51,813 bases of DNA from contig DASXJP010000193.1 of NCBI GenBank assembly GCA_036497345.1, positions 1 through 51,813 of the forward strand, given 5' to 3'. Below, in pieces: positions 8,758 to 51,813 of the stretch (its first letter is position 1; every line of letters starts with the position of its first letter). This DNA is from Thermoanaerobaculia bacterium. Lineage in GTDB: Bacteria; Acidobacteriota; Thermoanaerobaculia; Multivoradales; UBA5704. A program made the position numbers and the translations under genes. The notes under the pieces were generated by a model. It worked only from the letters and a program-made list of their open reading frames with translations, did not search any database and was not told the origin of the DNA.

Positions 8758-8797
8758 GACGCTCTTTCCAGAACCACTTACGGGAGGGCGGCATTCC

Positions 8798-9391
8798 TTA
8801 GTGAGATTGAGCCGCTTGCGCCCCGCCGCTCAGGCGTCCCACGGCGTGGATCGTCACCCGCACCTCCTTCTCCACCCGCAGGAGGAAGAAGCTGGGGTCC
8901 TTGAGCCCCCAGTCGAGGTAGCGGACGATCATCGTGCCGGTCCCCTTGACCTGGGTGCCGTCGCTGGTGGCGACGACCGTCAGGTCCATCGGGCGCTTCG
9001 TCCCGTGCAGCTCCAGCATACCGTGCAGCTCGAGCTGGCTCCGCCCGACCGGGTTGAGCTCGCCGCTGAAGCGCTGCGGCTCGAAGATTATCTCGGTGTA
9101 GCTCGGGCTCTCCAGGATCTTCTCATGCATCTTGTGGTCGCGCCGGGAGACGCCGGTCTCGGCGCTGGTGGCGTCGAGCACGAACCGGCCGCTGGCCTCG
9201 TGGGTGTCCGGGTCGATGCGGACCGACCCCTCCTTGGCCCGCAGGAAGCCGTCGACCGTATGGAGGGTGGCGCCGAAGGTGAAATCGACCTTCGTGGCGG
9301 CGGGATCGATCTCGAAGGTGTAGGTGGCGGCGGACAGGGGGAGGGCGAGCAGCAGGGCCAGTGGGAACCAGACGACCTCCTTGCGAAGCAT
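8798..9391 (-). CDS. YceI family lipid/polyisoprenoid-binding periplasmic protein
   Basis: Internal ATG at 9391 of ORF 8798..10012 gives 197 aa with a signal peptide (MLRKEVVWFPLALLLALPLSAA). YceI-like IDPAATKVDFTFGATLHTVDGF...DATSAETG...RDHKMHE. The upstream 207 codons are Arg/Gly/Pro junk. Confidence 0.85.
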   Translation of the reverse strand: MLRKEVVWFPLALLLALPLSAATYTFEIDPAATKVDFTFGATLHTVDGFLRAKEGSVRIDPDTHEASGRFVLDATSAETGVSRRDHKMHEKILESPSYTEIIFEPQRFSGELNPVGRSQLELHGMLELHGTKRPMDLTVVATSDGTQVKGTGTMIVRYLDWGLKDPSFFLLRVEKEVRVTIHAVGRLSGGAQAAQSH

Positions 9392-9435
9392 CGGGTCTTC
9401 CTCCTCGTCGGTTCGGTCGGTTCGGAGATCAGAGA

Positions 9436-10548
9436 TCAGACGGCCATCAGCCTCCAGGCCAGCCGCAGCGCCCCCAGTCCCAGGCGACGCGGCGGCAGGG
9501 TGCGGGCGTGGATGCCCAGTAGACGCGAGAACAGGGCCGGCTCGGCCGCGAGCGCCCGGACGGCGCGGACGCGCAGCCGGGGGCGTCGCTCCAGGGCGAG
9601 CACCAGGCCGGTCATGAGGTCCGGCAGACGGTTGATCCGGCGATGCGCCACCGCATACCGGCCGAGGTCTCCGGCGAGGATCGCCTCGACCAGGGCCGCC
9701 GATTCGTGGAGGGCCACCGCCAGCCCCTCGCCGGTGATGGCGTCGAAGTAGCCCGCCGCGTCCCCGACCAGCGCCAGGTTCCCCTTGCGCACCGCCCGGG
9801 CGCGCTGGCGCAGGGGGCCGGTCCCGCGGTCGCGCGAGGCGAGGGGCGCTCCCGCCACCCGGGCGCGCAGCTCGGGGAGGGTCGCCAGAAGATCGTCGAA
9901 ATCCGCCTTGCGCCCGCTCCAGAGGAAGGCGATCCCCACCTGGTGCGCGGCGACCGGCGTCACATAGGCCTCGCAGCCGGGGCCCCAGTAGACCTCCACG
10001 AAATCGCTCCACGGCGCCATGGCGAAATGCCGCCGGACGCCATACCGGAGCCAGGGCCGAAGCAGGGGATCACCGCCGCCGTCGAGATCCGCCCACTGCC
10101 GGACCCGCGACCGCAGCCCGTCCGCCCCCACGATCCAGCGGGCGGTGAGGATCCCCTGATCGGTCTCCACCCCGCCCTCCCGCAGCCCCTCGGCCTTGAC
10201 GCCCCAGCGCAGGTCGACCCCCACCTCACCCGCCCGGCGGACGAGCGCCTCGTGCAGCTCGGTCCGGCGCACCCCCAGCCCGCCGGCCTGCGGGCCAACC
10301 TGAGGGAAAACCCCCTCGGCCACGACCCCGCGATCGACATAGCGGATCCCCCGGAAGGGGAGCCCGCGCGGCACCACCCCGATCTCGCGGAGCCGCGCCA
10401 CGGCGTCGGGCATCAGACCCTCGCCGCAGGCCTTGTCGACCGGCGGCTGGGCGCGGTCGATCACCGTCACCCCGAGCCCCGCCATCCGCGCCCGGATGGC
10501 GGTCGCGAGCCCCGCCGGCCCGCCGCCCACGATCAAGAGATCATTCAT
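9436..10548 (-). CDS. FAD-dependent oxidoreductase/monooxygenase (geranylgeranyl-reductase-like; FtpE/SrsC-type role inferred)
   Basis: 370 aa. N-terminal dinucleotide fold LLIVGGGPAGLATA and GDAAGYFDAITGEG. Start overlaps the FAAL stop (ATGA). Confidence 0.8.
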   Translation of the reverse strand: MNDLLIVGGGPAGLATAIRARMAGLGVTVIDRAQPPVDKACGEGLMPDAVARLREIGVVPRGLPFRGIRYVDRGVVAEGVFPQVGPQAGGLGVRRTELHEALVRRAGEVGVDLRWGVKAEGLREGGVETDQGILTARWIVGADGLRSRVRQWADLDGGGDPLLRPWLRYGVRRHFAMAPWSDFVEVYWGPGCEAYVTPVAAHQVGIAFLWSGRKADFDDLLATLPELRARVAGAPLASRDRGTGPLRQRARAVRKGNLALVGDAAGYFDAITGEGLAVALHESAALVEAILAGDLGRYAVAHRRINRLPDLMTGLVLALERRPRLRVRAVRALAAEPALFSRLLGIHARTLPPRRLGLGALRLAWRLMAV

Positions 10549-12287
10549 TCTTCCCGCCGATCCCAGCGCATCCGCGCGTAGGCCTGGCTGGAGCGGGCCA
10601 TCGCCCCGGCGAGCCGCAGGGGGGTGACCGGCGCGGGGGGAGTGAGCTCCCCCGCGAGGTGAAGCCGCAGCGTCTCCCCCCGGCGGAGCTTGCCGGAGGA
10701 GGTGCGGGGGAGGGTACCCGGCGCGAGAACGATCACCTGGTCAGGGGAAAGGTTGGTCGCCCCCAGCACCGCCTCGCGGCAGGCCTCGGGCAGCGCCTCG
10801 ATCTCCGAGGCCGTGGCCTCGCGCGACGACTCGACGAACAGCGCCAGCACCTCGCCGGGAGCGTCCTCCGGCAGCCAGCTCACGGCCACGGCGCAGCCGG
10901 CGCGCACGCCGGGGATCTCCTCGACCGCCAGCTCGATCTCCTCCGGCGCGTAGTTGCGCCCGCGCAGGATGATCACCTCCTTGGCGCGGCCGGTGAGGTA
11001 GAGCTCCCCCTCGTGGAGGAAGCCGAGGTCTCCGGTGTCGAGCCAGCCGCCCCGCAGCGCGCGGACAGTGGCCTCGGGATCGCCCAGATAGCCGTCCATC
11101 AGCGAGGGCCCCTGGGCCCAGACCCGCCCCACCTGCCCTTCCGGGAGATCGCGCTCCGTCTCGTCCACGATCCGCAGGCGAAACCCCGGCACCGGCCGGC
11201 CAACGGAGACGATCTCGCGGCCAGCCGGCGCCTCCAGGGCGGCGCGGTCCCGGGCCAGCGCCTCGCGGTCGAAACGCCGGCCGCGGAATGGCCGGTCGAG
11301 ATCCGAGAAGGTGACGGCGAGCGCCGCCTCCGAGAGGCCGTAGACGGGGGTGAGCGCCTCGGGCCGGAAGCCCCAGCGGGCGAAGCGGTCGCGGAAGGCG
11401 CGCAGCACCGAGGGGGCCACCGGCTCGGCGCCGGTGAGCGCCGTCCGCCAGATGGAGAGATCGACCCCCTCCATCTCTTGCTCAGAGACGCGGGTGACGC
11501 ACAGGCTGTAGGCGAAATTCGGCGCTGGCGAGATCGTCCCGCGGTAGCGCGAGAGGGCCCGCAGCCAGAGGGCCGGCCGGGCCACGAACAGCTCCGGCCC
11601 GAGCAGCGTCAGCGTGACGTCGCGCGCGAGGGCCGGAAAGACGCAGCCGATCAGACCCATGTCGTGGTAGAGCGGCAGCCAGGAGACGCAACTGTGGCGC
11701 AGCCCCGACGTTTCGGGCCAGAAGCCGCTCAGGATCTCCACCTGGGCCGCGATCGCCCGGTGGCTCAGGGCGACCGGCTTGGGATCGACGGTGGTGCCCG
11801 AGGAGAACTGGATCACGGCCAGGTCGGACGGCTCGACGGGGACCGGAGCCACCGCCGATCCCGGCAGGTCGCCGATCGTCCGGCAGCCGAGATCGGGGCG
11901 TGCTTGGGCGACGGCCTCTCCGAGGATGCGGCGCACCCGGGAATCCGCCAGCACCAGGCGGGCGCCGGAGCGCTCCAGCATGCGGGCGGTGCGGCGGAGG
12001 TACTCGTTCATGCGGCCCAGCCGCACCGGCGGATAGAGCGGCACGGGCACGGCGCCGGCCAGGAGGGCGCCGAAGAACCCCTCGAAGAATTCGATGCCGG
12101 TGGGGAAGACGAGGGCGACGCGGTCCCCTTTCCGGACGCCCAGGCTCAGCAGCCCGCCGCAGACGGCGAGCGCCCGCTCCCGCACCTCCCCCCAGCCGAG
12201 CCAGGTGGCCGCCTCGGAGCGGTCCACGAAGCGGAGCCCCCCTTCCGGGTGCTGCCCCGCCGCGGCGAGCCAGTCGTTGATGATCAT
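10545..12287 (-). CDS. Fatty acyl-AMP ligase (FAAL)
   Basis: 580 aa. Adenylate-forming cores SSGTTVDPKPVALSH and WLDTGDLG. FAAL-type N-terminus (ALLAGAVPVPLYPP). ATGA overlap with the ACP stop. Confidence 0.85.
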   Translation of the reverse strand: MIINDWLAAAGQHPEGGLRFVDRSEAATWLGWGEVRERALAVCGGLLSLGVRKGDRVALVFPTGIEFFEGFFGALLAGAVPVPLYPPVRLGRMNEYLRRTARMLERSGARLVLADSRVRRILGEAVAQARPDLGCRTIGDLPGSAVAPVPVEPSDLAVIQFSSGTTVDPKPVALSHRAIAAQVEILSGFWPETSGLRHSCVSWLPLYHDMGLIGCVFPALARDVTLTLLGPELFVARPALWLRALSRYRGTISPAPNFAYSLCVTRVSEQEMEGVDLSIWRTALTGAEPVAPSVLRAFRDRFARWGFRPEALTPVYGLSEAALAVTFSDLDRPFRGRRFDREALARDRAALEAPAGREIVSVGRPVPGFRLRIVDETERDLPEGQVGRVWAQGPSLMDGYLGDPEATVRALRGGWLDTGDLGFLHEGELYLTGRAKEVIILRGRNYAPEEIELAVEEIPGVRAGCAVAVSWLPEDAPGEVLALFVESSREATASEIEALPEACREAVLGATNLSPDQVIVLAPGTLPRTSSGKLRRGETLRLHLAGELTPPAPVTPLRLAGAMARSSQAYARMRWDRREE

Positions 12288-12532: not shown

Positions 12533-13107
12533 GGTCTCTCTGGAGTACCCGGCATCAGACGGGGACGGCTTGCGAAAACGGTGCCGTAGTCGGTCATCCG
12601 CGCCAGCGCCTCCTCCTCGGCGCGGATGCGGACGCGGAGGATCAGGCCGTTGAGGACGCTGAAGACGGCCGCCGTCAGCCACGCCGTATGCACCAGCGGC
12701 AGGGCGAGGATCTCCGTGATCACCGCCAGATAGTTGGGATGCCGCAGGAGCCGGTACGGCCCGCCCGTGACGGGAGAGGCCCCCGGCAGGACCACGATCC
12801 GCGTGGTCCACCGGCCGTCGAGGGTGGAGATGACCCAATACCGCAGCCCGGTCGCCAGGACCACGAGCAGGAGCATGGGAATCCCCAGCGCCGGCACGAA
12901 CGGCCGATCGAGGAGCCAGACCTCCAGGGGGCAGCAGATCAGGAAGGCGGTGTGTAGCAGCACCATCCACCGGTAGTGCCCCGGCGCCGCCTCGACCCCG
13001 CCCCGGGCCAGCAGCGCGCGCCGGTTCCGCCCCGCGATCCGCAGCTCGATCAGCCGTCCGAGGGCGACGAGGAGGACGAGGAGGGTGTAGAGGAGGCGGG
13101 TGCTCAA
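12529..13107 (-). CDS. Isoprenylcysteine carboxyl methyltransferase (ICMT)-family membrane methyltransferase (BpsB/FtpB-like)
   Basis: About 192 aa, multi-TM, with LLRHPNYLAV and RIRAEEEAL motifs. No in-frame ATG near the family-typical N-terminus, so I infer a TTG start at 13107 that overlaps the Fic TGA (TTGA). The start is uncertain. Confidence 0.72.
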   Translation of the reverse strand: MSTRLLYTLLVLLVALGRLIELRIAGRNRRALLARGGVEAAPGHYRWMVLLHTAFLICCPLEVWLLDRPFVPALGIPMLLLVVLATGLRYWVISTLDGRWTTRIVVLPGASPVTGGPYRLLRHPNYLAVITEILALPLVHTAWLTAAVFSVLNGLILRVRIRAEEEALARMTDYGTVFASRPRLMPGTPERP

Positions 13108-14234
13108 AGGGGTCTCTCGGCAAAAGGATCCTCTACTCTTCGCGTCTCCCGGGTCTTGGCTCGAATCGCTTTGAGCTCCTCGGAAGCCACGTAGAAGCGT
13201 CCTCGCTTTTCTCCCTGCGGAACGAGCAAGCCCTGCGCCACGAGAGTCTTCAGGTCTTTGCTCGCCAGGCCTTCGGTGATGTCCGCGATCGGCCGATACG
13301 TAGCGTTCCGCACTCTCAGCCCGACCGCGGCATCGGCCATCGCCAGAAGCGTGCGTTCCGGCAAACCTCTCCTGGCGATCTCCTCCTCCAGCGCGTCCCA
13401 CAGCCGCCCGATCTCCCGCGTGCGCAGCAGCAGCGTGGACGCCTGCCGGTAGTGGGCCGTGAGGCAAAATCGTATCCAGGGCCGCGCGTCACGCTCCGGC
13501 TGCCAGGAGCCGTCCCCGACCGTCGCCAGGACATCGTAGTAGGCGCGGGTATTTCTACCCAGATACTCCTCGATGCTGGAGAACGGCGCGGCCAGCACCC
13601 CGCTCCGGGCCAGCACCATGGTCTGGAGACAGCGCGCCATCCTTCCGTTGCCATCCGAAAAGGGGTGAATCATGACCAGGTTGAGATGGGCCATCGCCGC
13701 CTTAATGACCCCGGGCATTCCGGGATTCCCATTGAGGAAGCCCAGAAGCTCGTCGACGAGCCCGGGCACCAGCTCGGCGTCCGGTCCCACGTAGACCCGC
13801 TCTTCCCTTTCGTCGTCATACACGAAGATCGGCCCCGGCCTCCATCTCCCTGGATTCTTGGCCAGGGTGTGTTGCAGCATCATGAAGTGCAGGCTCCGCA
13901 ACAGGTCCGCCGAGTAGCGAAAGTGGATGTCGCCCGCGAGCTGCAGGACGTAGGTCATGGCGACCTGATAGCCCCTCACATTCGCCCAGGCTTCGGTCTT
14001 GGCGTCCAACGGCTCTTCCCCTTCCGCCGCCGCGATCGCATCGTCCAGGGATACGTCGTAGCCCTCGATGCTGTTGGAGCCTTTGACCGCTCGCGCGAAG
14101 GTGGTGCGACGGAGCAACCCGTACCACCGTCTCGGCTGGTCCGAGACCGCATGGCCGAGGACCCTCTTGAGCTCGTCCACCCGATGAAGGACGTCTTCCT
14201 CTTGGGGATCGAGGTCTGGTGTTTGGAAGAGCAT
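13104..14234 (-). CDS. Fic family protein (AMPylase-type, class with N-terminal inhibitory helix)
   Basis: 376 aa. Canonical Fic motif HPFSDGNGRMAR, an inhibitory-helix-like SNSIEG ([S/T]xxxE[G/N]) upstream, and a C-terminal winged-helix-like tail. Visibly lower GC than its neighbours. Confidence 0.9.
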   Translation of the reverse strand: MLFQTPDLDPQEEDVLHRVDELKRVLGHAVSDQPRRWYGLLRRTTFARAVKGSNSIEGYDVSLDDAIAAAEGEEPLDAKTEAWANVRGYQVAMTYVLQLAGDIHFRYSADLLRSLHFMMLQHTLAKNPGRWRPGPIFVYDDEREERVYVGPDAELVPGLVDELLGFLNGNPGMPGVIKAAMAHLNLVMIHPFSDGNGRMARCLQTMVLARSGVLAAPFSSIEEYLGRNTRAYYDVLATVGDGSWQPERDARPWIRFCLTAHYRQASTLLLRTREIGRLWDALEEEIARRGLPERTLLAMADAAVGLRVRNATYRPIADITEGLASKDLKTLVAQGLLVPQGEKRGRFYVASEELKAIRAKTRETRRVEDPFAERPL

Positions 14235-20478: not shown

Positions 20479-21280
20479 CGCGCTCTCCACCGAGGCCCTG
20501 GCGCCGGAGCCGGCCGAGCCCATTCTGGAGACCCGGGGGCTCACCGTCGCCGCCGGCCGGCGCACCCTCCTGCGGTCGATCGGCCTGCGGATCGAGCCTG
20601 GCCGGGTGCTCGGCATCCTAGGGGCCTCGGGGGTCGGCAAGACGACCCTGCTGCGCTGCCTCAACCGGCTGACCGACCTGACCCCGCAGCTCGCCGTGTC
20701 GGGGGAGGTCCTGCTGCACGGACGCCCGATCCACGGCCGGGACGTGGACGCCGACGCCCTGCGCGCGCGCATCGGCATGCTGTTCCAGCAGCCGGTGGTC
20801 TTCCCCGGCAGCATCGCCGACAACGTGATGTTCGGCGTCCGCCACACCGGCCGCCTCCCCCGGCGCGCCTGGCCGGAGCGGATCGAGCGGGCGCTGCGCG
20901 AGGCGGCGCTCTGGGAGGAGGTCCGCCACCGCCTCAGGGAGCCGGCGGCGAGCCTCTCGGCGGGGCAGCAGCAGCGCCTCTGCCTGGCCCGCACGCTGGC
21001 GGGGGAGCCCGAGGTCCTTCTCCTCGACGAGCCCACCAGCGCGCTCGACGCCGGCTCCACGGCGGCGATCGAGGAGCTGATCCTCCGCCTGCGCGAGCGG
21101 CACGCCATCGTCCTCGTCACCCACGGCCTGCGGCAGGCCCGCCGCGTGGCGGACTCCCTCGTCTACCTCGCCCCCCGCGACGGCGCGGGGGAGGTCGTCG
21201 AGAGCGGCCCCTGCCAGGACCTCTTCACCCGGCCCCGCTCTCCGGAGCTGGCCCGCTATCTCTCCCGGGAGCCCGCATGA
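20471..21280 (+). CDS. pstB: PstB-like phosphate-import ATP-binding protein
   Basis: ATG at 20471 gives 269 aa. Walker A GASGVGKTT, signature LSAGQQQRL, Walker B LLLDEPTSALD. Confidence 0.9.
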   Translation: MLDALSTEALAPEPAEPILETRGLTVAAGRRTLLRSIGLRIEPGRVLGILGASGVGKTTLLRCLNRLTDLTPQLAVSGEVLLHGRPIHGRDVDADALRARIGMLFQQPVVFPGSIADNVMFGVRHTGRLPRRAWPERIERALREAALWEEVRHRLREPAASLSAGQQQRLCLARTLAGEPEVLLLDEPTSALDAGSTAAIEELILRLRERHAIVLVTHGLRQARRVADSLVYLAPRDGAGEVVESGPCQDLFTRPRSPELARYLSREPA

Positions 21281-22152
21281 CCGCCGCTGAGACAACCGCC
21301 CCGGAGGTCGCCCTCCGATCGCTCGACACCCTCTGGTTCCAGGTGGGGGGCACGGTGTGCAACCTGGCCTGCGCCCACTGCTTCGTCTCCTGCTCGCCCA
21401 CCAACCACACCCACGAGATGATGCCCCTCGCCCAGGTGCGGCGCTATCTGGAGGAGGCGGCGCGGCTGGGGGTGCGCGAGTATTACTTCACCGGCGGCGA
21501 GCCGTTCCTCAACCCCGAGATGGAGGCGATCCTCGCCGCCACTCTTGAGGTCGGGCCGGCCACGGTGCTGACCAACGGCCTGCTGCTCGACCCCGGCCGC
21601 TGCGCCCGCCTCAAGGCGCTGGCGGACGCCTCCGACTATTCGCTCGACTTCCGGGTCTCGCTCGACGGCTGGGACGCGGCCAGCAACGACCCCATCCGCG
21701 GCGCGGGGACCTTCGAGAAGATCCTCGCCGGCATCCGCAATCTCCACGCGGCCGGGCTCAACCCCGTGATCACGGTGACCGAGGTCTGCGAGGGGGCGGC
21801 CGGCGACGCCGGCAAGAAGCTCTTCTTCACCCTGCTGCGGTCGCTGGGGATCGAGCGCCCGCGCCTCAAGATCCTCCCCGTCTTCCGCATCGGCGCCGAG
21901 GCCGAGCGCGGCGGCGCCTACGAGAGCTGGCAGCGGCTGCGGGAAGGAGAGGTACCCGACGGCGGCTGGGATCATCTGCAGTGCAGCTCCTGCCGGATGG
22001 TGACCGACCAGGGGGTCTGGGTCTGCCCCATCCTGGTCAACGAGCCGGCGGCGAAGATGGGCGAAGCCCTCGCCGACACCCTGGGCGGCTTCCCCCTGGA
22101 GCACCCGGCCTGCTGGACCTGCCACGTCTACGGCGTGAGCTGCCGGACCTGA
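21277..22152 (+). CDS. arsS: Radical SAM / Cys-rich-domain protein, ArsS-like (arsenosugar biosynthesis family)
   Basis: 291 aa. CNLACAHC radical SAM motif and a Cys-rich C-terminus (CSSC...CP...CWTC...C). ATGA overlap with pstB. Confidence 0.78.
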   Translation: MTAAETTAPEVALRSLDTLWFQVGGTVCNLACAHCFVSCSPTNHTHEMMPLAQVRRYLEEAARLGVREYYFTGGEPFLNPEMEAILAATLEVGPATVLTNGLLLDPGRCARLKALADASDYSLDFRVSLDGWDAASNDPIRGAGTFEKILAGIRNLHAAGLNPVITVTEVCEGAAGDAGKKLFFTLLRSLGIERPRLKILPVFRIGAEAERGGAYESWQRLREGEVPDGGWDHLQCSSCRMVTDQGVWVCPILVNEPAAKMGEALADTLGGFPLEHPACWTCHVYGVSCRT

Positions 22153-22164
22153 GGCGGACGACCG

Positions 22165-23139
22165 ATGTCCTCCAAGCTCACCGTCCACCGCGGCCTGGCC
22201 ACCTGGGGGGAGAAGCTCGTCCCCCTCTCCGCCTTCCGCGAGGCCGCGGCCCGGAAAGGCCTGCGGCTCCCACGGGAAGATAGAGAATCCGCCGTGCTCA
22301 CCTACACGGCCGGCCTGGACGACCCCACGCCGGTCGAGGGCCCGTATTCGCGCATCGCCGTCTTCGGCGGCGTCTACAGCAATCACCTCGCCCTGCTGGA
22401 GCTGCTGGAGGACGCCGCCCGCCGGGGCGCCGAGGCGGTCTACTGTCTGGGCGATCTGGGAGCCTTCGGTCCCAATCCCGAGAAGGTCCGGCCGCTGCTG
22501 GCGCAAGGCCAAGTGCTCGCCATCCAGGGGAACTACGAGGAGTCGCTCGCCGCGGGCCGCGAGGACTGCAACTGCGGCTACACCGATCCGCGCGACAACC
22601 ACTTCGCGGAGATCTCCTACCGCTACACCGAGCGGAATTGCTCCCCCGGATTCAAGGCCTGGATGGGCACCCTACCCCGGCGCCGCCGCGTGCGGGTGGG
22701 GGAGCGCGAGCTGCTGCTCGTCCACGGCTCGCCGCGCCGGATCAACGAGTTCCTCTTCCACAGCACCTCGCCGGTGCCGTTCCTGGAGGTGCTGCTGGAG
22801 CAGAGCCGCTGCGACGGTATCCTAGCCACCCACACCGGGCTCCACTGGCACCGCCGCCTCCCCTCGGGGCGGGACGTGGTCAACGTGGGCGTGATCGGCC
22901 GGCCAGCCAACGACGGCCGGACGAACGTCTGGTACGCGATGCTGGAGGCGCGAGACGATGTACGAGGAAACCGGTTGAAGGTCGAGCTGGTGCCGCTCGC
23001 CTACGACCACCTGGGACTGGCGGCCGAGATGCGGTCCGAGGGGTTGCCCGAGGAGTTCGTCGAAACCGTCCTGACCGGTTGGTGGACTACCTGTCTGGAG
23101 ATCCTGCCCGCCCGCGAGCGGGCCGCTTCATGCTTCTGA
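22165..23139 (+). CDS. Metallophosphoesterase family protein
   Basis: 324 aa. Calcineurin-like motifs VFGGVYSN, GDLGAFGP, QGNYEE, LVHGSPR, ATHTGLH. Confidence 0.75.
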   Translation: MSSKLTVHRGLATWGEKLVPLSAFREAAARKGLRLPREDRESAVLTYTAGLDDPTPVEGPYSRIAVFGGVYSNHLALLELLEDAARRGAEAVYCLGDLGAFGPNPEKVRPLLAQGQVLAIQGNYEESLAAGREDCNCGYTDPRDNHFAEISYRYTERNCSPGFKAWMGTLPRRRRVRVGERELLLVHGSPRRINEFLFHSTSPVPFLEVLLEQSRCDGILATHTGLHWHRRLPSGRDVVNVGVIGRPANDGRTNVWYAMLEARDDVRGNRLKVELVPLAYDHLGLAAEMRSEGLPEEFVETVLTGWWTTCLEILPARERAASCF

Positions 23140-23157
23140 CCCAGGGAGGATCGAGAG

Positions 23158-24363
23158 ATGTCCGACGCCAAGCCTCATATCGCCATCCTCGGGGCCGGTC
23201 CGACCGGCCTCGAAGCCGCTCTCGCCGCCGTGGAGGCGGGCCATCCGTTCACGGTCTACGAAGCCTCGCCTTCGGTGGCGGGCAACGTCCGCGCCTGGGG
23301 TCACGTCCGGCTGTTCACGCCGTGGAAAATGAACGTCTCCCCGCGCATGCGGCGCCACCTGGAGGCGGCCGGCCGCGAGGTCCCGGGCGGCTCCGAATGC
23401 CCCACCGGGCACGACCTCGCCGGGAAGGTCCTGGAGCCGCTGGCGGCTCTGCCGGAGATCGCGCCCCACCTGCGGCTGGGCACCCGTGTGCTGAGCATCG
23501 GCCGCCAGGGGCTGCTGAAGCACGAGGAGATCGCCACCCCCGAGCGCGGCCGGCACCCCTTCCGCCTGCTCCTCGCCGATGGCGCCGGCCGGGAATGGAC
23601 CGAGACGGTGGACCTCGTCATCGACGCCACCGGCACCTGGGGGAGCCCCAATACGCTGGGGGACGCCGGCATCCCCGCTCCCGGCGAGCGTTCCTTCGCG
23701 GGGGAGATCCGGCGCGACATCCCCGACCTCTCGGCGGAGAAAGAGGGTTGGGCGGGCAAAGCCATCCTTCTCGCCGGCGCCGGCCACTCGGCGCAGACCG
23801 CCGTCCGCGCTCTCGCCGAGCTGGCGAAGGAGGCGCCGGGGACGCGGGTGATCTGGGCCCTGCGCAATCCCGAGCCCTCCTGGGGCACTCATGAGGGAGA
23901 CCCTCTTCCCGATCGCGCATCTCTCGCCGCCTCCGCCGTGGATCTGGCCGGCGGCGCCTCGCCCGCCGTCGAGGCCCGGCGCGGCGCGGTGGTCGAGGAG
24001 ATCGCGAAGCCCAACGGCCGCTTCGAGGTCACCCTGCGCAACGGCGCGGGCCCCGAGACGATCGAGGTCGACCGCATCCTCTCGCTGACCGGCGCGGTGG
24101 GCGACCACAGCCTCTACCGCCAGCTCCAGGTCCACGAGTGCTACGCCACCTGCGGTCCGATCAAGCTCTCGGCGGCCCTCCTGGGCGCCGGCAGCTCCGA
24201 CTGCCTGGCCCAGACCACCCACGGCGCGGACACCCTCACCAACCCGGAGCCGGGCTTCTTCATCCTCGGCGCCAAGTCCTATGGGAGGAACAACACCTTC
24301 CTGATGCGGGTGGGGTGGGAGCAGGTGGGGGAGGTGTTCGGGATGTTGGCTGTGCCGGACTGA
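23158..24363 (+). CDS. FAD/NAD(P)-binding flavoprotein oxidoreductase (two-dinucleotide-fold)
   Basis: 401 aa. ILGAGPTG and LAGAGHSA Rossmann motifs, and IDATG. Confidence 0.7.
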   Translation: MSDAKPHIAILGAGPTGLEAALAAVEAGHPFTVYEASPSVAGNVRAWGHVRLFTPWKMNVSPRMRRHLEAAGREVPGGSECPTGHDLAGKVLEPLAALPEIAPHLRLGTRVLSIGRQGLLKHEEIATPERGRHPFRLLLADGAGREWTETVDLVIDATGTWGSPNTLGDAGIPAPGERSFAGEIRRDIPDLSAEKEGWAGKAILLAGAGHSAQTAVRALAELAKEAPGTRVIWALRNPEPSWGTHEGDPLPDRASLAASAVDLAGGASPAVEARRGAVVEEIAKPNGRFEVTLRNGAGPETIEVDRILSLTGAVGDHSLYRQLQVHECYATCGPIKLSAALLGAGSSDCLAQTTHGADTLTNPEPGFFILGAKSYGRNNTFLMRVGWEQVGEVFGMLAVPD

Positions 24364-24386
24364 CCCTCAGCTATGACACAATGGTG

Positions 24387-24413
24387 GGACCGGCGGGAGA
24401 GCTAAGCCGGTCC
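24387..24413 (+). promoter_or_regulatory. 8-bp hairpin abutting the ATPase start codon
   Basis: ggaccggc-(11 nt)-gccggtcc. It ends 4 nt before the ATG at 24418 and 24 nt after the upstream stop. No T-run. Confidence 0.35.
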
Positions 24414-24417
24414 TACC

Positions 24418-25641
24418 ATGCGCGATTCGGCCTTTCTCACCCGGGTTCTGCTGGAGAACTATAAGAGTATTGCGCGTTGCGATGTCTCTTTGTCTCCTTT
24501 GACCTTCCTTGTCGGTCCGAACGGTTCAGGGAAGAGCAACTTCCTCGATGTTCTCCGCTTCGTTGCCGATGCCCTGAGGACAGCGTTGGATCACGCGATC
24601 CGTGACCGGGGCGGAATCAAGGAAGTCCGCCGCCGGTCCAGCACACATCCGCCGACCTATTTCGGAATCCGGCTCGAATTTGCGCTGCCGACGGGCCAAA
24701 GAGGGTTCTATTCATTTCGGATTGGAGCCTTACGCGCGGCCGGCTATGAGGTCCAGCGGGAAGAATGTCTAGTTTCGGCGAAAACGGCACTAGAACAGGA
24801 CGCTCACTACCAAGTAGATCGAGGGGAGGTAGTGTCGAGAAGCGTATCCGTTTCTCCTGTAGCTTCAAAGGATCGACTCTATCTAGTCAGTGCATCTGGG
24901 CTGCCGGAATTCCGGCCAGTGTTCGAGTTCTTCTCAAATATGGGATTCTATAATCTCAACCCGGACGAGATCCGCGATCTCCAGCCACCGGACGTGGGAG
25001 AGATCCTGTCTCGAGAGGGAAACAATATCGCAAGCGTCCTCGGGCAACTTTCAGCGCACAATCCGGCAGCAAAGGAGCGAATCGAGGAGTACCTCGGCAA
25101 GGTCGTCTCGGGAATCCAGACGGTGGACGCAAGGTCAATTGGCTCGAAAGAGACTCTTGAGTTTAGGCAGCACATTGAGGGATCTCAGCATCCCTGGAGA
25201 TTCCTTGCTTCCAGCATGTCGGACGGGACCTTGAGGGCTGTCGGTATTCTTGTCGCACTTTTCCAATCATCCAATGGACAGCGGACCCGGGTACCCCTAG
25301 TGGGAATCGAAGAGCCTGAGGTTGCTCTTCATCCTGCAGCGGCCGGCGTCCTCTTGGATGCGCTTATGGATGCTAGCCGACACACGCAGGTCCTCGTCAC
25401 CAGCCACAGCCCTGAGCTGTTGGATGATTATCGAATTTCGGCAGATTCGATCTTGGCAGTAGTGGCCAAACGGGGAATCACCAGTATCGCTTCGTTGGAC
25501 GAGGTCGGAAGGTCGGTTCTCCGCGATCGCCTGTATACTCCTGGGGAGTTGCTGAAGCTCAATCAGCTCAAGCCGGATCCTGCCGAGTTAGATCGGCTCA
25601 TCAACAATCAGATGAATCTCTTCAAAAAGAACCTCGCCTGA
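24418..25641 (+). CDS. RecF/SMC-like ABC-type ATPase (AAA_15/AAA_21-like, OLD/AriA-like)
   Basis: 407 aa. Walker A GPNGSGKSN, signature-like SMSDGTLR, Walker B/D-loop LVGIEEPEVALHP, H-loop VTSHSP. Lower GC than the flanks. Confidence 0.85.
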   Translation: MRDSAFLTRVLLENYKSIARCDVSLSPLTFLVGPNGSGKSNFLDVLRFVADALRTALDHAIRDRGGIKEVRRRSSTHPPTYFGIRLEFALPTGQRGFYSFRIGALRAAGYEVQREECLVSAKTALEQDAHYQVDRGEVVSRSVSVSPVASKDRLYLVSASGLPEFRPVFEFFSNMGFYNLNPDEIRDLQPPDVGEILSREGNNIASVLGQLSAHNPAAKERIEEYLGKVVSGIQTVDARSIGSKETLEFRQHIEGSQHPWRFLASSMSDGTLRAVGILVALFQSSNGQRTRVPLVGIEEPEVALHPAAAGVLLDALMDASRHTQVLVTSHSPELLDDYRISADSILAVVAKRGITSIASLDEVGRSVLRDRLYTPGELLKLNQLKPDPAELDRLINNQMNLFKKNLA

Positions 25642-26256
25642 ATGTCACTCGGCCTAGCCTGTATCGTCGAAGGAGATGGGGATGTCGAGGCGGTCCCAAT
25701 CGCGATTCGGAGAATCATCCAGCAGATCGCTCCGGGGCTGGTCCCCCAATTTCATCCCCTTCGAGTCCCGCGGACCAAACTGGTGAAACCGGGAGAGCTG
25801 GAACGGTCCATTGAGCTCGCCGCCCGTAGGGCAGGTAGAGGCGGTGCTATTTTTGTCGTTCTGGACAGTGACGATGACTGTCCAGCGACCCTGGGGCCGG
25901 AGCTCCTCGACCGGGCCAGGAGGGCTCGCTCCGACCTCGCGATCAGTGTCGTGCTCGCGAAACGAGAGTTCGAGGCTTGGTTTCTGGCCTCCGCCAGATC
26001 CTTGCGCGGTCTTCGAGGGTTGGCTGACGATCTTGAGCCACCTCCCGATCCGGAAGCTATACGGGGTGCCAAAGAATGGCTAACAGCACGGATGCCGGAG
26101 GGACGCAGCTACGTGGAGACCCTGGATCAATCCGCGCTGGCCGCCTCCATGGATCTCCTTCAGGCGAGAGCGGCCTCCTCGTTCGACAAATTCTTCCGCG
26201 ACCTCGTGGCCATCGTCGAACAGCTCACGGCCGGTAAAGAAGACCTCCTGCGCTAG
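25642..26256 (+). CDS. DUF4276 family protein (Toprim-like putative nuclease)
   Basis: 204 aa. The ATG immediately follows the ATPase TGA. Toprim-style acidic motifs IVEGDGD and VVLDSDDD, plus the DUF4276-typical EFEAWFL. Confidence 0.72.
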   Translation: MSLGLACIVEGDGDVEAVPIAIRRIIQQIAPGLVPQFHPLRVPRTKLVKPGELERSIELAARRAGRGGAIFVVLDSDDDCPATLGPELLDRARRARSDLAISVVLAKREFEAWFLASARSLRGLRGLADDLEPPPDPEAIRGAKEWLTARMPEGRSYVETLDQSALAASMDLLQARAASSFDKFFRDLVAIVEQLTAGKEDLLR

Positions 26257-26269
26257 ACTTCCTCCCACC

Positions 26270-27406
26270 ATGAAGTACTTCGGCCAGCCCGACTTCCAAC
26301 ACGGGGAGGTACCGGCGGTAGGCGTCCTCCTGGCGAACCTGGGGACCCCCGACGCGCCGGACACGCCGTCGCTCCGCCGTTATCTGCGCGAGTTCCTGCT
26401 CGACCCGCGGGTCATCGAGATGCCGCGGGCGCTCTGGTGGCTGATCCTCCACCTGTTCGTGCTCCCCTTCCGGCCGGCCAAGTCGGCCGCGCTCTACCGG
26501 AAGGTCTGGACCCCGGAGGGCTCCCCGCTCCTCGTCATCGCCAACCGCCAGGCGGCGGCGCTCCAGCAGGTGCTGAGCCGGGAGACCGGCACGCCGATTC
26601 ACGTCGCCGTCGCCATGCGCTACGGCAACCCGTCGGTGCGGTCGGCGCTGCGCGAGCTCGCCGGTAAAGGCTGCCGGCGCGTCCTGGCGTTCCCTCTCTA
26701 CCCCCAGTACGCGGCGGTGACGACCGGCTCGACCATCGACGCCGTGGCCGCCGAGCTGATGACCTGGCGATGGGTGCCCGAGATCCGCACCATCCATCAC
26801 TACCACGACGACCCGGCCTACATCCGGGCTCTCGCGGCGAGCATCCGGGAGGTCTGGGAACGGGAGGGGCAGGCGGAGAAGCTCCTGTTCTCCTTCCACG
26901 GCATCCCGAAGCGCTACTTCCTGGCGGGCGATCCCTACTTCTGCGAGTGCCACAAGCTCGCCCGCCTGGCCGCCGCGGAGCTGGGGCTCCCCCGCGAGCG
27001 CTGGCAGGTCTCCTTCCAGTCGCTCTTCGGCAAGGAGGAGTGGCTCAAGCCCTATACCGACAAGACCATCACGGCGATGGCGAAATCCGGCATCCGCAGC
27101 CTCGACGTCGTCTGCCCCGGCTTCTCGGCCGACTGCCTGGAGACGATCGAGGAGATCGACGAGCAGAACCGCGAGATCTTCCTCCACGCCGGCGGCGAGC
27201 GCTACCGCTACATCCCCGCCCTCAACGACCGGCCGGACCACATCCGCGTCCTCGCCGACCTGGTCCACCGCAACCTTCAGGGGTGGGTGAAGACGCCCGC
27301 CGAGCGCGACGAGGAGGGGGAGCGCCTGGAGGCCGGCGAATCGCGGCGGCGGGCCGAGGTGATGCTGGCCGCGCCGGTGCTGGAAGACGCCGGCTATGGG
27401 CGCTGA
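26270..27406 (+). CDS. hemH: Ferrochelatase
   Basis: 378 aa. LLANLGTPD, RYLREFLLDPRV, FSFHGIP, SLFGKEEWLKPYT. Confidence 0.93.
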   Translation: MKYFGQPDFQHGEVPAVGVLLANLGTPDAPDTPSLRRYLREFLLDPRVIEMPRALWWLILHLFVLPFRPAKSAALYRKVWTPEGSPLLVIANRQAAALQQVLSRETGTPIHVAVAMRYGNPSVRSALRELAGKGCRRVLAFPLYPQYAAVTTGSTIDAVAAELMTWRWVPEIRTIHHYHDDPAYIRALAASIREVWEREGQAEKLLFSFHGIPKRYFLAGDPYFCECHKLARLAAAELGLPRERWQVSFQSLFGKEEWLKPYTDKTITAMAKSGIRSLDVVCPGFSADCLETIEEIDEQNREIFLHAGGERYRYIPALNDRPDHIRVLADLVHRNLQGWVKTPAERDEEGERLEAGESRRRAEVMLAAPVLEDAGYGR

Positions 27407-33444: not shown

Positions 33445-36058
<2,614 letters not shown>

Positions 36059-36069
<11 letters not shown>

Positions 36070-36861: not shown

Positions 36862-39402
<2,541 letters not shown>

Positions 39403-47630: not shown

Positions 47631-47803
47631 CTCATCTCTCCTGGGAAATCGACGTCGGCATGTAGAAATCTCCCACTCGAACGTATGCCTTTGTACGAAT
47701 GAGCACAAAAAGGGATCGCCCGCCCGGGGGCCGGGAGGAAAAACCCCGCTCAAACCGGCCTTTCTGGGGGCTTGGGGCGCTCATCGGAGATCAGGCATGT
47801 TAC

Positions 47804-48022
47804 TTGCAGATAGAGAAGAGCACAAATCAGTTGGAACACGAGGAGGAGGTTCCGTCCAGCCAACCGTATCCCATCCCTTTCGAGATCCTACGCGATCTCA
47901 TCCTTGAGAAGCCCTCCTTGGATCCCCTCATCAGGGGTAGAGCCAACCAACAGCCAACCTGAAAGCAAGGAATCTCCTCCCTACAGCCCCCCAGCCCAGT
48001 GGCCGGGGGGCCTTTCTTTTTT
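47804..48022 (+). ncRNA. Candidate structured sRNA, copy 1 of a tandem paralogous pair
   Basis: 12-bp closing helix 47842-47853 / 47969-47980. Hairpins gagatc-6-gatctc (47882-47899) and cccct-4-agggg (47924-47937). Three AGCCAACC motifs. Intrinsic terminator 47986-48022 (7-bp G/C stem plus a T-rich tail). The 5' end is not defined. Confidence 0.5.
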
Positions 48023-50463: not shown

Positions 50464-51039
50464 CTAGAGCGACGGCAGGGGGAGCTGGGCCGGGCGCAGC
50501 CGCTCCCAGGCGGTCCGTTCGACCGTGTCGAGCCAGTCGGGCCGGGCCGCCGCGTCGAGCCGCAGGACGGAGAGCCCGCGCGCGGCCACCTCGTGGGCGA
50601 GCCGTTCCTCGACCGCGTACTGGAACCCGGGATCGGGCGAGCGGATGCCGTCCGGTCTCAAGGATTCGACGATGGGGACGTGGATCAGCAGGTCGTACCC
50701 CTGGATCCAGTACTCGACCAGCCGCTCCGGCCCCTCCTGGCGTCCGGCGGCGAGCAGGAGGTAGACGTAGTTGTCGAGCACGCTGCGGTCGCAGACCACC
50801 ACCGGATACCGCGCCTGGGCCACCAGCTCCTCGGCGATCTGGGTATGGAGGATCCACGACTGCGCGGCGACCGACGTCTCCTCGTTGATCGGCAGCGGGC
50901 ACCGCCGCGCCACCTCGTGCACCACCTCGACCCCCACGTCCCGCCGCTTCAGCCGCGCCGCGAGCCCGTAGCAGAGCGTGGTCTTGCCCACGCCGTGGCT
51001 GCCGATGAAGGCGATCTTGGAGCGGGGGGTGGGGAGCAT
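50464..51039 (-). CDS. Small P-loop NTPase (AAA_28/nucleoside-kinase-like ATP-binding protein)
   Basis: ATG at 51039 gives 191 aa. Walker A GSHGVGKTT and Walker B-like VVVCDRSVLD. Confidence 0.68.
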   Translation of the reverse strand: MLPTPRSKIAFIGSHGVGKTTLCYGLAARLKRRDVGVEVVHEVARRCPLPINEETSVAAQSWILHTQIAEELVAQARYPVVVCDRSVLDNYVYLLLAAGRQEGPERLVEYWIQGYDLLIHVPIVESLRPDGIRSPDPGFQYAVEERLAHEVAARGLSVLRLDAAARPDWLDTVERTAWERLRPAQLPLPSL

Positions 51040-51052
51040 CGCGGGGACATTA

Positions 51053-51331
51053 TCAATCCTCGTCCTCCGGATCGAGGTGGAAGTCCTCGGGAGGCAGGTT
51101 GAGCTGCCGACAGAGGCTTCGGAGGAGAGTCGGGGTGAGGACATCGTCCTCTCCGACCCCGAGCATCAGGGAGAACGCGTCGGTCAAATCCTCCCTCTCC
51201 AGGTAGGAGAAATAGACCGGTCCGCGAGGGCCGAGCATGGGAAGCCCGAAGGTACGGATCGTGACCCCGTAATCCCTCCGCACCACTTCTACGAATTGGC
51301 GCAACGTGAGGCGCCACGGAGGAGCGGTCAA
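51053..51331 (-). CDS. Hypothetical 92-aa protein with HicA-like layout but no catalytic His
   Basis: LTLRQFVEVVRRDYGVTIRTFG...LTPTLLRSLCRQLNLPPEDF parallels the HicA N- and C-terminal segments. Acidic tail. Weak call. Confidence 0.4.
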   Translation of the reverse strand: MTAPPWRLTLRQFVEVVRRDYGVTIRTFGLPMLGPRGPVYFSYLEREDLTDAFSLMLGVGEDDVLTPTLLRSLCRQLNLPPEDFHLDPEDED

Positions 51332-51340
51332 GTCGCGGCC

Positions 51341-51649
51341 TCAGGCGGCTCTCAATTCGACGTCGGGGAGGACTTGGAAGGCGCCCTGACGGAAGGGGAG
51401 GGCTTCAGCGGGGATGGGCTCCGCCTGTTCGTACATCGCCCAATAGCGCCGTGGGGCCCGGGGCAGGTTGGCGAAGGGAATCCTCCCCTTCTCGGCGCTG
51501 ATGAAGAAGTGGCCGACCAGGATACGCTCCAGCTCATAGAGGAGGTCATCCCTGGTACGGGCCTGAGCGGCGATATCGTGCTCCAGGCATTGGGCGACCC
51601 ACCACCCCTCTTCCTGGAACAGAACTACCTGGATCTTCAGCTCTGCCAT
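51341..51649 (-). CDS. HicB-like (UPF0150-fold) protein lacking an obvious DNA-binding domain
   Basis: 102 aa. KIQVVLFQEEGWWVAQCLEHDIAAQARTRDDLLYELERIL fits the HicB N-terminal pattern. Confidence 0.55.
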   Translation of the reverse strand: MAELKIQVVLFQEEGWWVAQCLEHDIAAQARTRDDLLYELERILVGHFFISAEKGRIPFANLPRAPRRYWAMYEQAEPIPAEALPFRQGAFQVLPDVELRAA

Positions 51650-51813
51650 AGGGAGATTATAGCCTATCCAGGCCTCGATGAAAACGTCTCAGGTCAGGGC
51701 GAAGTTCTGGGAACTGAGAATCTCGTCTAGAATCCCATCACCTCTTCAATGATGTCCCTTGGTTTTGGATGACGGCCTGGAAGCTATTCACCCAACTCCT
51801 CGGCCAGCTTCCT

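Follow-up and report, generated by a model that had tools for sequence, protein, structure and literature searches.

In OLD and in Gabija, a Toprim nuclease is controlled by ATP. In PARIS, AriA restrains the Toprim nuclease AriB, which a phage trigger then sets free, and the PARIS paper added MADS3-4 to the ABC-ATPase/TOPRIM systems, with DUF4276 among the annotated domains (PMC11464382). Mad4 has been described as a DUF4276 homologue, and DUF4276 and RloB have been described together as new members of the Toprim superfamily with the same Glu + DxD (PMC12065111). In MADS, deletions of mad3 and mad4 weaken defence and both genes are needed for full defence; mad5 could be deleted only jointly with mad2 or mad3, and MAD6-8 are mandatory in the models of that paper (bioRxiv 10.1101/2023.03.30.534895). 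HEC-01, Hma-embedded candidate 01, consists of an ABC ATPase together with a TOPRIM protein, and its conserved metal-binding site is shared with BpOLD (Payne et al. 2024, bioRxiv 10.1101/2024.01.29.577857). A 2026 study reports that in some environmental surveys HEC-01 is one of the most abundant types of candidate defence system (PMC12881386). Here we describe a two-gene cassette, an ABC ATPase gene (A) followed by a DUF4276 gene (B), in a stretch of 51,813 nucleotides from a Thermoanaerobaculia bacterium (contig DASXJP010000193.1); this whole stretch is called the window.

On sequence evidence, the cassette belongs to HEC-01, a candidate anti-phage family that is already in the catalogues, and so to a known kind of system. 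It is an optional insert of foreign appearance that separates two core genes in the genome of a soil Acidobacteriota. By analogy with the systems above, we consider it rather likely that it works as a stand-alone HEC-01, in which an ATPase-controlled Toprim nuclease would take part in an abortive-infection-type defence of this organism.

Results

Assignment of the pair to HEC-01

A and B are open reading frames (ORFs) on the same strand with no spacer between them. The TGA of A (25639-25641) abuts the ATG of B (25642), as the initial annotation of the bare sequence had stated, and from these abutting codons we infer that the A-B operon is probably translationally coupled. In PADLOC-DB v2, the A protein matched the model HEC-01A (PDLC04178) at 5.4e-165 and 547 bits, residues 3-403 aligning with profile positions 3-395 of 399, and the B protein matched HEC-01B (PDLC04196) at 1.6e-71, with residues 4-193 on positions 3-193 of 197. 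The window thus has both proteins of HEC-01, adjacent and in shared orientation; the embedding in Hma, which gives the family its name but is not needed for detection, is not found here. The initial annotation had proposed an uncharacterised third arrangement of an ATPase and a Toprim domain. This is out of date because the pair is PADLOC HEC-01, which was described in 2024. The annotation also knew of no experimental characterisation of such pairs, whereas experiments exist for two HEC-01 clones and for mad3/mad4 deletions. Its reading was right in kind and its domain logic was correct, although the system is not novel.

In Pfam, A matched AAA_21 (9e-29), AAA_15 (1.6e-20) and also SMC_N. Walker A GPNGSGKS (G33/N35/G36/G38/K39/S40), the signature MSDGT (M267-S-D-G-T271), Walker B IEEPE (E298-E-P-E301) and the H-loop SHS (S329-H-S331) are invariant in 39 homologues. 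A sequence search of the PDB placed the class 2 OLD protein 6p74 first (1.6e-12), followed by PtuA and GajA (~1e-8), and Foldseek with the AlphaFold model of A found the SMC head, PtuA, the retron I-A ATPase and Rad50 at ~1e-11. By motif and profile A is an ABC ATPase of the SMC/Rad50/OLD/PtuA type, in agreement with the initial assignment to OLD/SMC-type ATPases. Other PADLOC models that matched A were AriA (1.4e-28 and 1.8e-21) and AbiLi (4.1e-24), and the Old and GajA models matched parts of A only (2.4e-20 and 2.3e-15); these models and that of mad3 all came far behind HEC-01A. Against NCBIfam antiphage_MADS3, A scored 100.8 bits (cut-off 420), and against RecF it scored 26 bits (cut-off 172).

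B matched Pfam DUF4276 over its full length (3.1e-11, 44.3 bits, cut-off 30.2) and no DUF4435, Toprim_OLD or RloB model in Pfam. In PADLOC only HEC-01B-type models matched it, with no AriB and no mad4 match at E <= 0.1. E10, D77, E109, E111 and W113 are invariant among 36 homologues and D75 is nearly so, which gives a conserved layout of E10, D75-x-D77-D78 and E109-x-E111-x-W113. The model of B (predicted local distance difference test score, pLDDT, 90.9; predicted template modelling score, pTM, 0.87) has the order β1-α1-β2-α2-β3-α3-β4, followed by a helical C-terminal half. In this model E10 ends β1 (strand 2-10), D75-x-D77-D78 ends β3 (69-76) and ExExW comes after β4. As far as sequence and model can tell, the placement of these residues and the order of the secondary structure elements are those of the Toprim arrangement. 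The initial identification of B as a DUF4276 protein with a Toprim-type Glu and DxD therefore stands, as PMC12065111 agrees, and all motifs quoted for the two genes are present, with key residues invariant or nearly so in the homologues. Foldseek with the model of B gave a weak match to the BpOLD Toprim domain 6nk8 (E 7.6e-3, template modelling score 0.43), which ranked under several flavodoxin-like folds. The best viral fold match of B, also weak, was an RloB-like protein (probability 0.99, E 3.4e-3, TMq 0.50, identity 13%), and the PDB held no match by sequence (best E 1.5). B is a putative metal-dependent Toprim-fold nuclease and would be the effector of the pair.

The pair is not a member of the related systems. 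It falls outside MADS because A scores 100.8 bits for MAD3, below the cut-off of 420; B matches no mad4 model, and no further mad genes lie nearby. It falls outside PARIS, with which it had initially been compared as a PARIS-like module, because B matches neither DUF4435 nor AriB, and A is nearer to HEC-01A than to AriA. It falls outside OLD and Gabija because its ATPase and Toprim domains are on two ORFs and are not fused.

Distribution of the pair and its gene neighbourhoods

At least 1,919 homologues of B and at least 7,662 of A were found in the protein database, mostly from environmental metagenomes. A relative of B is encoded in 383 of 185,579 species genomes, and the phyla that bear it include Acidobacteriota (Thermoanaerobaculia, Holophagales), Poribacteria, Chloroflexota, Planctomycetota, Verrucomicrobiota and others. 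Of the 80 genome loci that matched best, 77 had room to see A. In all 77 of these loci, which come from many phyla, A lies directly 5' of B and shares its strand, and the expected conservation of the homologues as a gene pair is thus borne out. Pairwise distances of A and B correlate (r = 0.79), with clear recombinant exceptions. In locus L028 (A 8759-9994, B 10001-10576), A is 84% but B only 61% identical to that of the window, and from this mosaic it follows that either recombination took place between the two genes or B alone was replaced. Discordant A/B pairs occur in Poribacteria too, e.g. L020/L024 and L027/L048.

About 8 of the 80 loci lie within or beside Hma (L011, L021, L023, L038, L040, L058, L062, L063). 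The order in L011 is HmaA-[A-B]-HmaB-HmaC, and in L014 the pair lies between a Snf2/HKD protein and a Type IIG restriction-modification (RM) enzyme. These homologues within or beside defence genes have 57-66% identity. The anticipated association with defence genes is therefore found for some homologues but not for the window, which is not a defence island: only a SoFic-like gene 10 kb upstream and a BrnT-like ORF, also 10 kb off, qualify there. Within 10 kb of the pair there are no defence-type genes beyond the pair itself, and the window contains no homologues of HmaA, HmaB or HmaC.

The copies inside Hma bear on whether the cassette is an orphaned accessory or effector module of the Hma or MADS type, which would need partners (helicase, methylase, ATPase) encoded elsewhere and be inert alone. 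The family was discovered within Hma, and in MADS the mad3/mad4 deletions lower defence while the deletion pattern of mad5 suggests that Mad3 acts in a methylation-dependent pathway; a need for partners could also account for the stand-alone clone of Payne et al., which was not protective. However, most loci examined, in Acidobacteriota, in more than 30 Poribacteria species and in others, have no Hma or RM neighbour, and their genes are intact with a ratio of nonsynonymous to synonymous substitution rates (dN/dS) of ~0.1. In the window the lack of Hma homologues, the low MAD3 score and the lack of a mad4 match for B speak against such a module, as does the report that a cloned HEC-01 protected E. 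coli B (PMC12881386). We hold an orphaned module to be unlikely and retain a stand-alone HEC-01 as the preferred reading. Most HEC-01 copies lie outside Hma and are stable or polymorphic residents of the chromosome in several phyla, which bears on whether the family works autonomously.

Some Poribacteria loci have further features at A. A palindromic ATCGGGGTTACAAACCCCTCCTACA occurs between the upstream gene and A, ~30-90 nt 5' of A, in L012, L019, L027, L050 and others; it is tandemly repeated (x2) in L050 and looks like a repetitive extragenic palindrome or a miniature inverted-repeat transposable element (REP/MITE-like). In L035 (1798-2124) and L066 (9761-9919) an intact B has just a piece of A detectable beside it (query residues 279-387 and 1-53), and these fragments may be pseudogenised ATPases or assembly errors.

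Composition of the cassette and polymorphism of the flavoprotein/hemH junction

The gene order, all on the + strand, is flavoprotein (stop 24363), A, B and hemH (start 26270). GC content is 0.54-0.60 inside the segment and 0.69-0.76 in the flanks (0.58 for the cassette overall, ~0.69 for the window), and GC content at third codon positions (GC3) is 0.61 in A and 0.66 in B compared with 0.89-0.97 in each neighbouring gene. GC, GC3 and coordinates agree with the low-GC two-gene segment that had been noticed initially. The foreign segment ends at the stop codon of B, and its start needs correction. In blastn comparisons with relatives in which the junction is empty (L083, L089, L090, L094), the match stops at 24345-24349 and restarts at 26264-26270, so that the foreign segment begins at ~24346-24350, within the final flavoprotein codons, and not at 24364.

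The same junction holds the pair in L001-L008, L010, L022, L028 and L075, in a shared layout of radical SAM, metallophosphoesterase, flavoprotein, A, B, hemH and DUF2911 genes, and the flank proteins are 74-91% identical to those of the window. A metagenome scan seeded on hemH, which is unbiased as to the cassette, gave 38 informative relatives with hemH of at least 70% identity. Among them the junction holds the pair in 10, is empty in 21 (flavoprotein directly followed by hemH), is decayed in one and has other content in 6. Two contigs from soil metagenomes (Ga0308176 and Ga0308175), L082 (occupied) and L083 (empty), have flanks that are 99.5% identical and differ by a clean 1895-bp indel in place of one base, and the TAG of B in L082 coincides with the TAG of the flavoprotein gene in L083. 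Such presence/absence dynamics are typical of defence cargo, and this near-isogenic pair represents a natural experiment on phage susceptibility in situ with and without the cassette. Transposon- or integron-like mobility is unsupported, as the L082/L083 indel has no target-site duplication, (terminal) inverted repeat or recombinase and carries two genes only. A fresh one-off horizontal insertion was rejected, since at least 12 further genomes of Acidobacteriota and 10 metagenome contigs also carry the pair at this junction, in diverged alleles.

Alleles at the junction fall to 62% (A) and 60% (B) identity to those of the window, and in L122 hemH is 93% identical to that of the window, yet A is only 76% and B 65% identical. 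In the decayed relative L108 (3073-3285), B is cut to a 70-aa remnant that joins the Glu-bearing N-terminus to the C-terminus and has lost the DxD region, while A can still be recognised (66% identity); decay of the cassette here begins with B, the predicted nuclease.

Other contents of the junction were also seen. L106 (1813-2314) and L107 (269-770, - strand) carry low-GC3 cargo with a 107-aa DUF433 protein (7.9e-14) and a 90-aa ORF that matched no family. DUF433 proteins are a class often annotated as antitoxin-like. The occurrence of this cargo at the same junction makes it a general cargo hotspot that is not specific to HEC-01. In L120 (281-2407, - strand) a 707-aa pectate-lyase-like protein (GC3 0.90) takes the place of the flavoprotein upstream of hemH, and in L092 (4323-4382) the flavoprotein gene is absent; the structure of the stretch upstream of hemH therefore varies in more than the cassette.

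Selection and sequence evolution

Among the syntenic loci A has a dN/dS of 0.11 and B one of 0.10, compared with ~0.2 for the flanking genes, and these low ratios indicate that both A and B are functional. The median synonymous divergence (dS) is 1.3-1.4 for the pair and 0.43-0.65 for the flanks. Between the window and L082, dS is 0.18-0.25 in the flanks, 1.43 in A and 0.79 in B, and the nonsynonymous divergence (dN) of the pair is also raised ~2x; the excess dS may be partly an artefact of the extreme GC3 bias of the flanks, since the NG86 estimates are uncorrected. GC3 of the pair trails that of the host in every high-GC host and matches it in low-GC Poribacteria. The lag in GC3, the excess divergence and the mosaic alleles, taken together, are most simply explained if alleles are repeatedly replaced and lost through homologous recombination within the conserved flanks.

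Purifying selection on the pair that exceeds that on the neighbouring genes would also be expected of a housekeeping DNA-maintenance module for repair or recombination, comparable to RecF (an ABC ATPase) with RecR (a Toprim protein). The matches of A to RecF, SMC and Rad50 models and folds, the stable synteny with metabolic genes across more than 30 Poribacteria species, and the absence of the family from phages and its near absence from plasmids would fit such a module. However, the pair is dispensable in most close relatives, as 21 of 38 sites are empty; it has a foreign composition in all high-GC hosts; a relative occurs in only 383 of the 185,579 species genomes; the RecF score is far below its cut-off (26 bits against 172); and homologues are embedded in defence systems. 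We regard a housekeeping role as very improbable, and keep to a stand-alone defence system.

Leader of the cassette

The block CTnTGnCAnAAT is invariant in 16 of 16 aligned divergent Acidobacteriota alleles. Its copy in the window, CTATGACACAAT, lies 35-45 nt 5' of the A start and was found only once in the 51.8-kb window on both strands. A simple sigma-70 scan found no -35/-10 pair, and a terminator scan found one chance-level terminator only, inside A. CTATGACACAAT is a putative promoter of the cassette itself. Directly downstream is a hairpin with a predicted RNA fold of -26.5 kcal/mol (z = -4.72; none of 200 shuffles as stable). The hairpin is present in most syntenic alleles and absent in L022, L075 and L110. 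Of its seven consensus pairs, three show compensatory changes, and the covariation term is weak (-0.73). The covariation is real but weak, and therefore we claim no structured RNA element beyond the leader stem. Motif and hairpin may together form the cassette's own promoter and a translation-limiting leader (Table 1).

The hairpin suggests tight repression, and this would suit a selfish addiction cassette of the toxin-antitoxin (TA) kind, in which a toxic nuclease B is restrained by A and the pair persists by killing or penalising cells from which it is lost, without net anti-phage benefit. Abutting and probably co-translated genes, presence/absence polymorphism at the site and a DUF433 protein at the same hotspot in L106 and L107 point in the same direction, the Pfam description of AAA_21 ties this type of ATPase to AbiEii-type toxins, and the BrnT-like ORF between gyrA and gyrB would make small selfish cargo among core genes common here. 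Nevertheless, loss is evidently tolerated, since 21 of 38 sites are empty including one of the near-isogenic pair, and decay in L108 begins with B and not with the presumed antitoxin. As abortive-infection and TA modules overlap, this explanation is a rival in part only. We think it quite unlikely, and prefer a stand-alone HEC-01 that acts in defence.

Table 1. Positions in the window of the cassette, its parts and other features discussed in the text
Feature	Position	Strand	Basis or remark
Cassette, ~1.9 kb	24346..26253	+	insertion defined against relatives with an empty flavoprotein/hemH junction
Gene A, HEC-01A ABC ATPase, 407 aa	24418..25641	+	PADLOC, Pfam, motifs, fold
Gene B, HEC-01B DUF4276/Toprim-like, 204 aa	25642..26256	+	PADLOC, Pfam, motifs, model
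B, catalytic candidate E10	25669-25671	+	
B, catalytic candidates D75-x-D77-D78	25864-25875	+	
B, catalytic candidates E109/E111		+	
Motif CTATGACACAAT (consensus CTnTGnCAnAAT)	24371..24382	+	extended -10-like layout, TGn + CAnAAT
Leader hairpin, 12-bp stem 24383-24394/24406-24417	24383..24417	+	3' arm runs up to the base that directly precedes the start codon of A
Radical SAM, metallophosphoesterase and Pyr_redox_2 flavoprotein block	21277-24363		syntenic block conserved across the clade
Fic-domain protein	13104-14234	-	PADLOC SoFic 2.1e-51; GC3 0.79, below its neighbours
gyrA	33445-36069		
BrnT-like ORF, 82 aa	36592-36843	-	Pfam 2.6e-08, exactly at the gathering score; GC3 0.63
gyrB	36862-39297		
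ORF	47699-47962	+	GC3 0.67; no Pfam or PADLOC match
ORF	50978-51730	+	GC3 0.70; no Pfam or PADLOC match

Other genes of the window

The neighbours of the pair are genes for an ABC transporter, a radical SAM protein, a metallophosphoesterase, the flavoprotein, hemH, DUF2911, HAD and nucleotidyl transferase proteins. hemH encodes ferrochelatase (8.6e-118), and the sole match of the flavoprotein was the generic Pyr_redox_2. The flavoprotein had been ascribed to an arsenic cluster. This label is unsupported for the upstream genes, as the radical SAM protein scored 54.6 bits against ArsS (cut-off 300). Its best NCBIfam match was the Rv1681 family (109.6 bits, cut-off 380), and no NCBIfam equivalog matched the radical SAM/metallophosphoesterase/flavoprotein block. 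The BrnT-like ORF between gyrA and gyrB is a second small foreign-looking insert among core genes, and its antitoxin might lie in a ~520-nt gap beside it. The two ORFs near the end of the window that lack family matches may be foreign genes or non-coding.

Discussion

We propose the following course of action for a stand-alone HEC-01, with PARIS as the best template and OLD and Gabija as further ones. A, the OLD/PtuA-like ABC ATPase, would be sensor and regulator, and B, the DUF4276 protein, would be a Toprim-fold metal-dependent nuclease effector. A would bind B. A cue from a phage or from foreign DNA, linked to the binding or hydrolysis of ATP, would turn the nuclease on; active B would then cleave DNA or an essential RNA, and the infection would be aborted. 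Transcription could start at the cassette's own extended -10-type promoter, and the leader hairpin over the ribosome-binding region of A might keep a potentially toxic system low. In this Thermoanaerobaculia-like lineage, the cassette is accessory cargo at a flavoprotein/hemH recombination hotspot, where it is gained, lost, swapped and at times decayed; the likeliest route is homologous recombination in the conserved flanks.

Several observations weigh against this reading. More than 30 Poribacteria species hold the pair at one syntenic position among metabolic genes (ABC transporter, SDR and PhyH upstream; sulfatase, GHMP kinase and PfkB downstream), and there it resembles a stable resident more than defence cargo. 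The window itself consists of core chromosome with gyrB, gyrA and hemH, in which the neighbours of the pair are metabolic or core genes and no other defence genes lie near it. A phage or plasmid origin is unsupported: the family had no match in IMG/VR viral contigs or in phage records, and plasmid copies are nearly absent, with only three on Streptomyces megaplasmids, so a transfer vehicle is not evident. The AlphaFold model of A is moderate (pLDDT 70, pTM 0.73). The Toprim fold of B is weakly backed, with no Foldseek match in PDB or BFVD at E <= 0.001 and with lumazine synthase ranked above OLD. In vitro activity is not on record for DUF4276 proteins, nor any activity for the locus in the window. 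The HEC-01 clone of Payne et al. was protective against none of the phages tried (bioRxiv 10.1101/2024.01.29.577857). For a second HEC-01, cloned from metagenomes of cold seeps, the 2026 study reported that E. coli B was protected from one or more of the phages T7, T5 and T4 (PMC12881386), with no magnitude stated in the text read. The alleles tried in the two studies are other representatives of HEC-01 than that of the window, and for the family as a whole there is so far no biochemistry and only these two conflicting phage tests. The excess dS of the pair, too, may be partly an artefact of the GC3 bias of the flanks.

What is new here is the conservation of the pair in 77 of 77 loci across many phyla, the embedding of some copies in Hma systems, the polymorphism of the junction, the purifying selection, the mosaic alleles, and the conserved motif and leader hairpin. 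It is possible, though doubtful, that stand-alone HEC-01 is an autonomous abortive-infection system whose DUF4276 nuclease differs in substrate or trigger logic from PARIS, OLD and Gabija, and that in soil Thermoanaerobaculia its long-lived presence/absence and allelic polymorphism at the junction is kept by balancing selection together with repeated allele replacement by recombination in the flanks. If true, this would explain why the GC3 of the pair stays permanently behind that of the host, and its dS at 2-6x that of the flanks. The diverged alleles, which are under strong purifying selection and conserve the catalytic residues, could guide mutagenesis.

Compared with known systems, the pair in the window shares single features with each. 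OLD and Gabija GajA are the closest solved relatives of A by sequence, the BpOLD Toprim domain is among the fold matches of B, and the logic of their Glu + DxD metal site is the same as in B; however, ATPase and Toprim are fused there and are separate polypeptides here, B has no Toprim_OLD match, and there is no GajB-like helicase partner. AbiL and RloA-RloB combine an ABC ATPase with the Toprim-like RloB. AbiLi matches A at 4.1e-24 and the best viral fold match of B is RloB-like, but the identity to that structure is 13% and B has no RloB match in Pfam. PARIS likewise has a split ABC ATPase and Toprim-type effector as a two-gene operon, and its AriA model matches A at 1.4e-28, whereas AriB is a DUF4435 protein of ~35 kDa, B is a smaller DUF4276 protein (204 aa), and A fits HEC-01A far better (5.4e-165). 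PARIS is often encoded by phages or satellites, unlike the family of the window, for which phage records and viral contigs gave no match. Mad3-Mad4 of MADS likewise places an AAA_15/21-type ABC ATPase beside a DUF4276 protein, with genetic evidence of a role in phage defence, but A is under the MAD3 cut-off, B has no mad4 match, and mad1, mad2 and mad5-8 are not nearby. HEC-01 is the closest: although the copy in the window is alone between the flavoprotein gene and hemH, outside Hma or any other defence system, it has the same architecture of an ABC ATPase followed by a small DUF4276 protein, and homologues of its subfamily occur within Hma systems.

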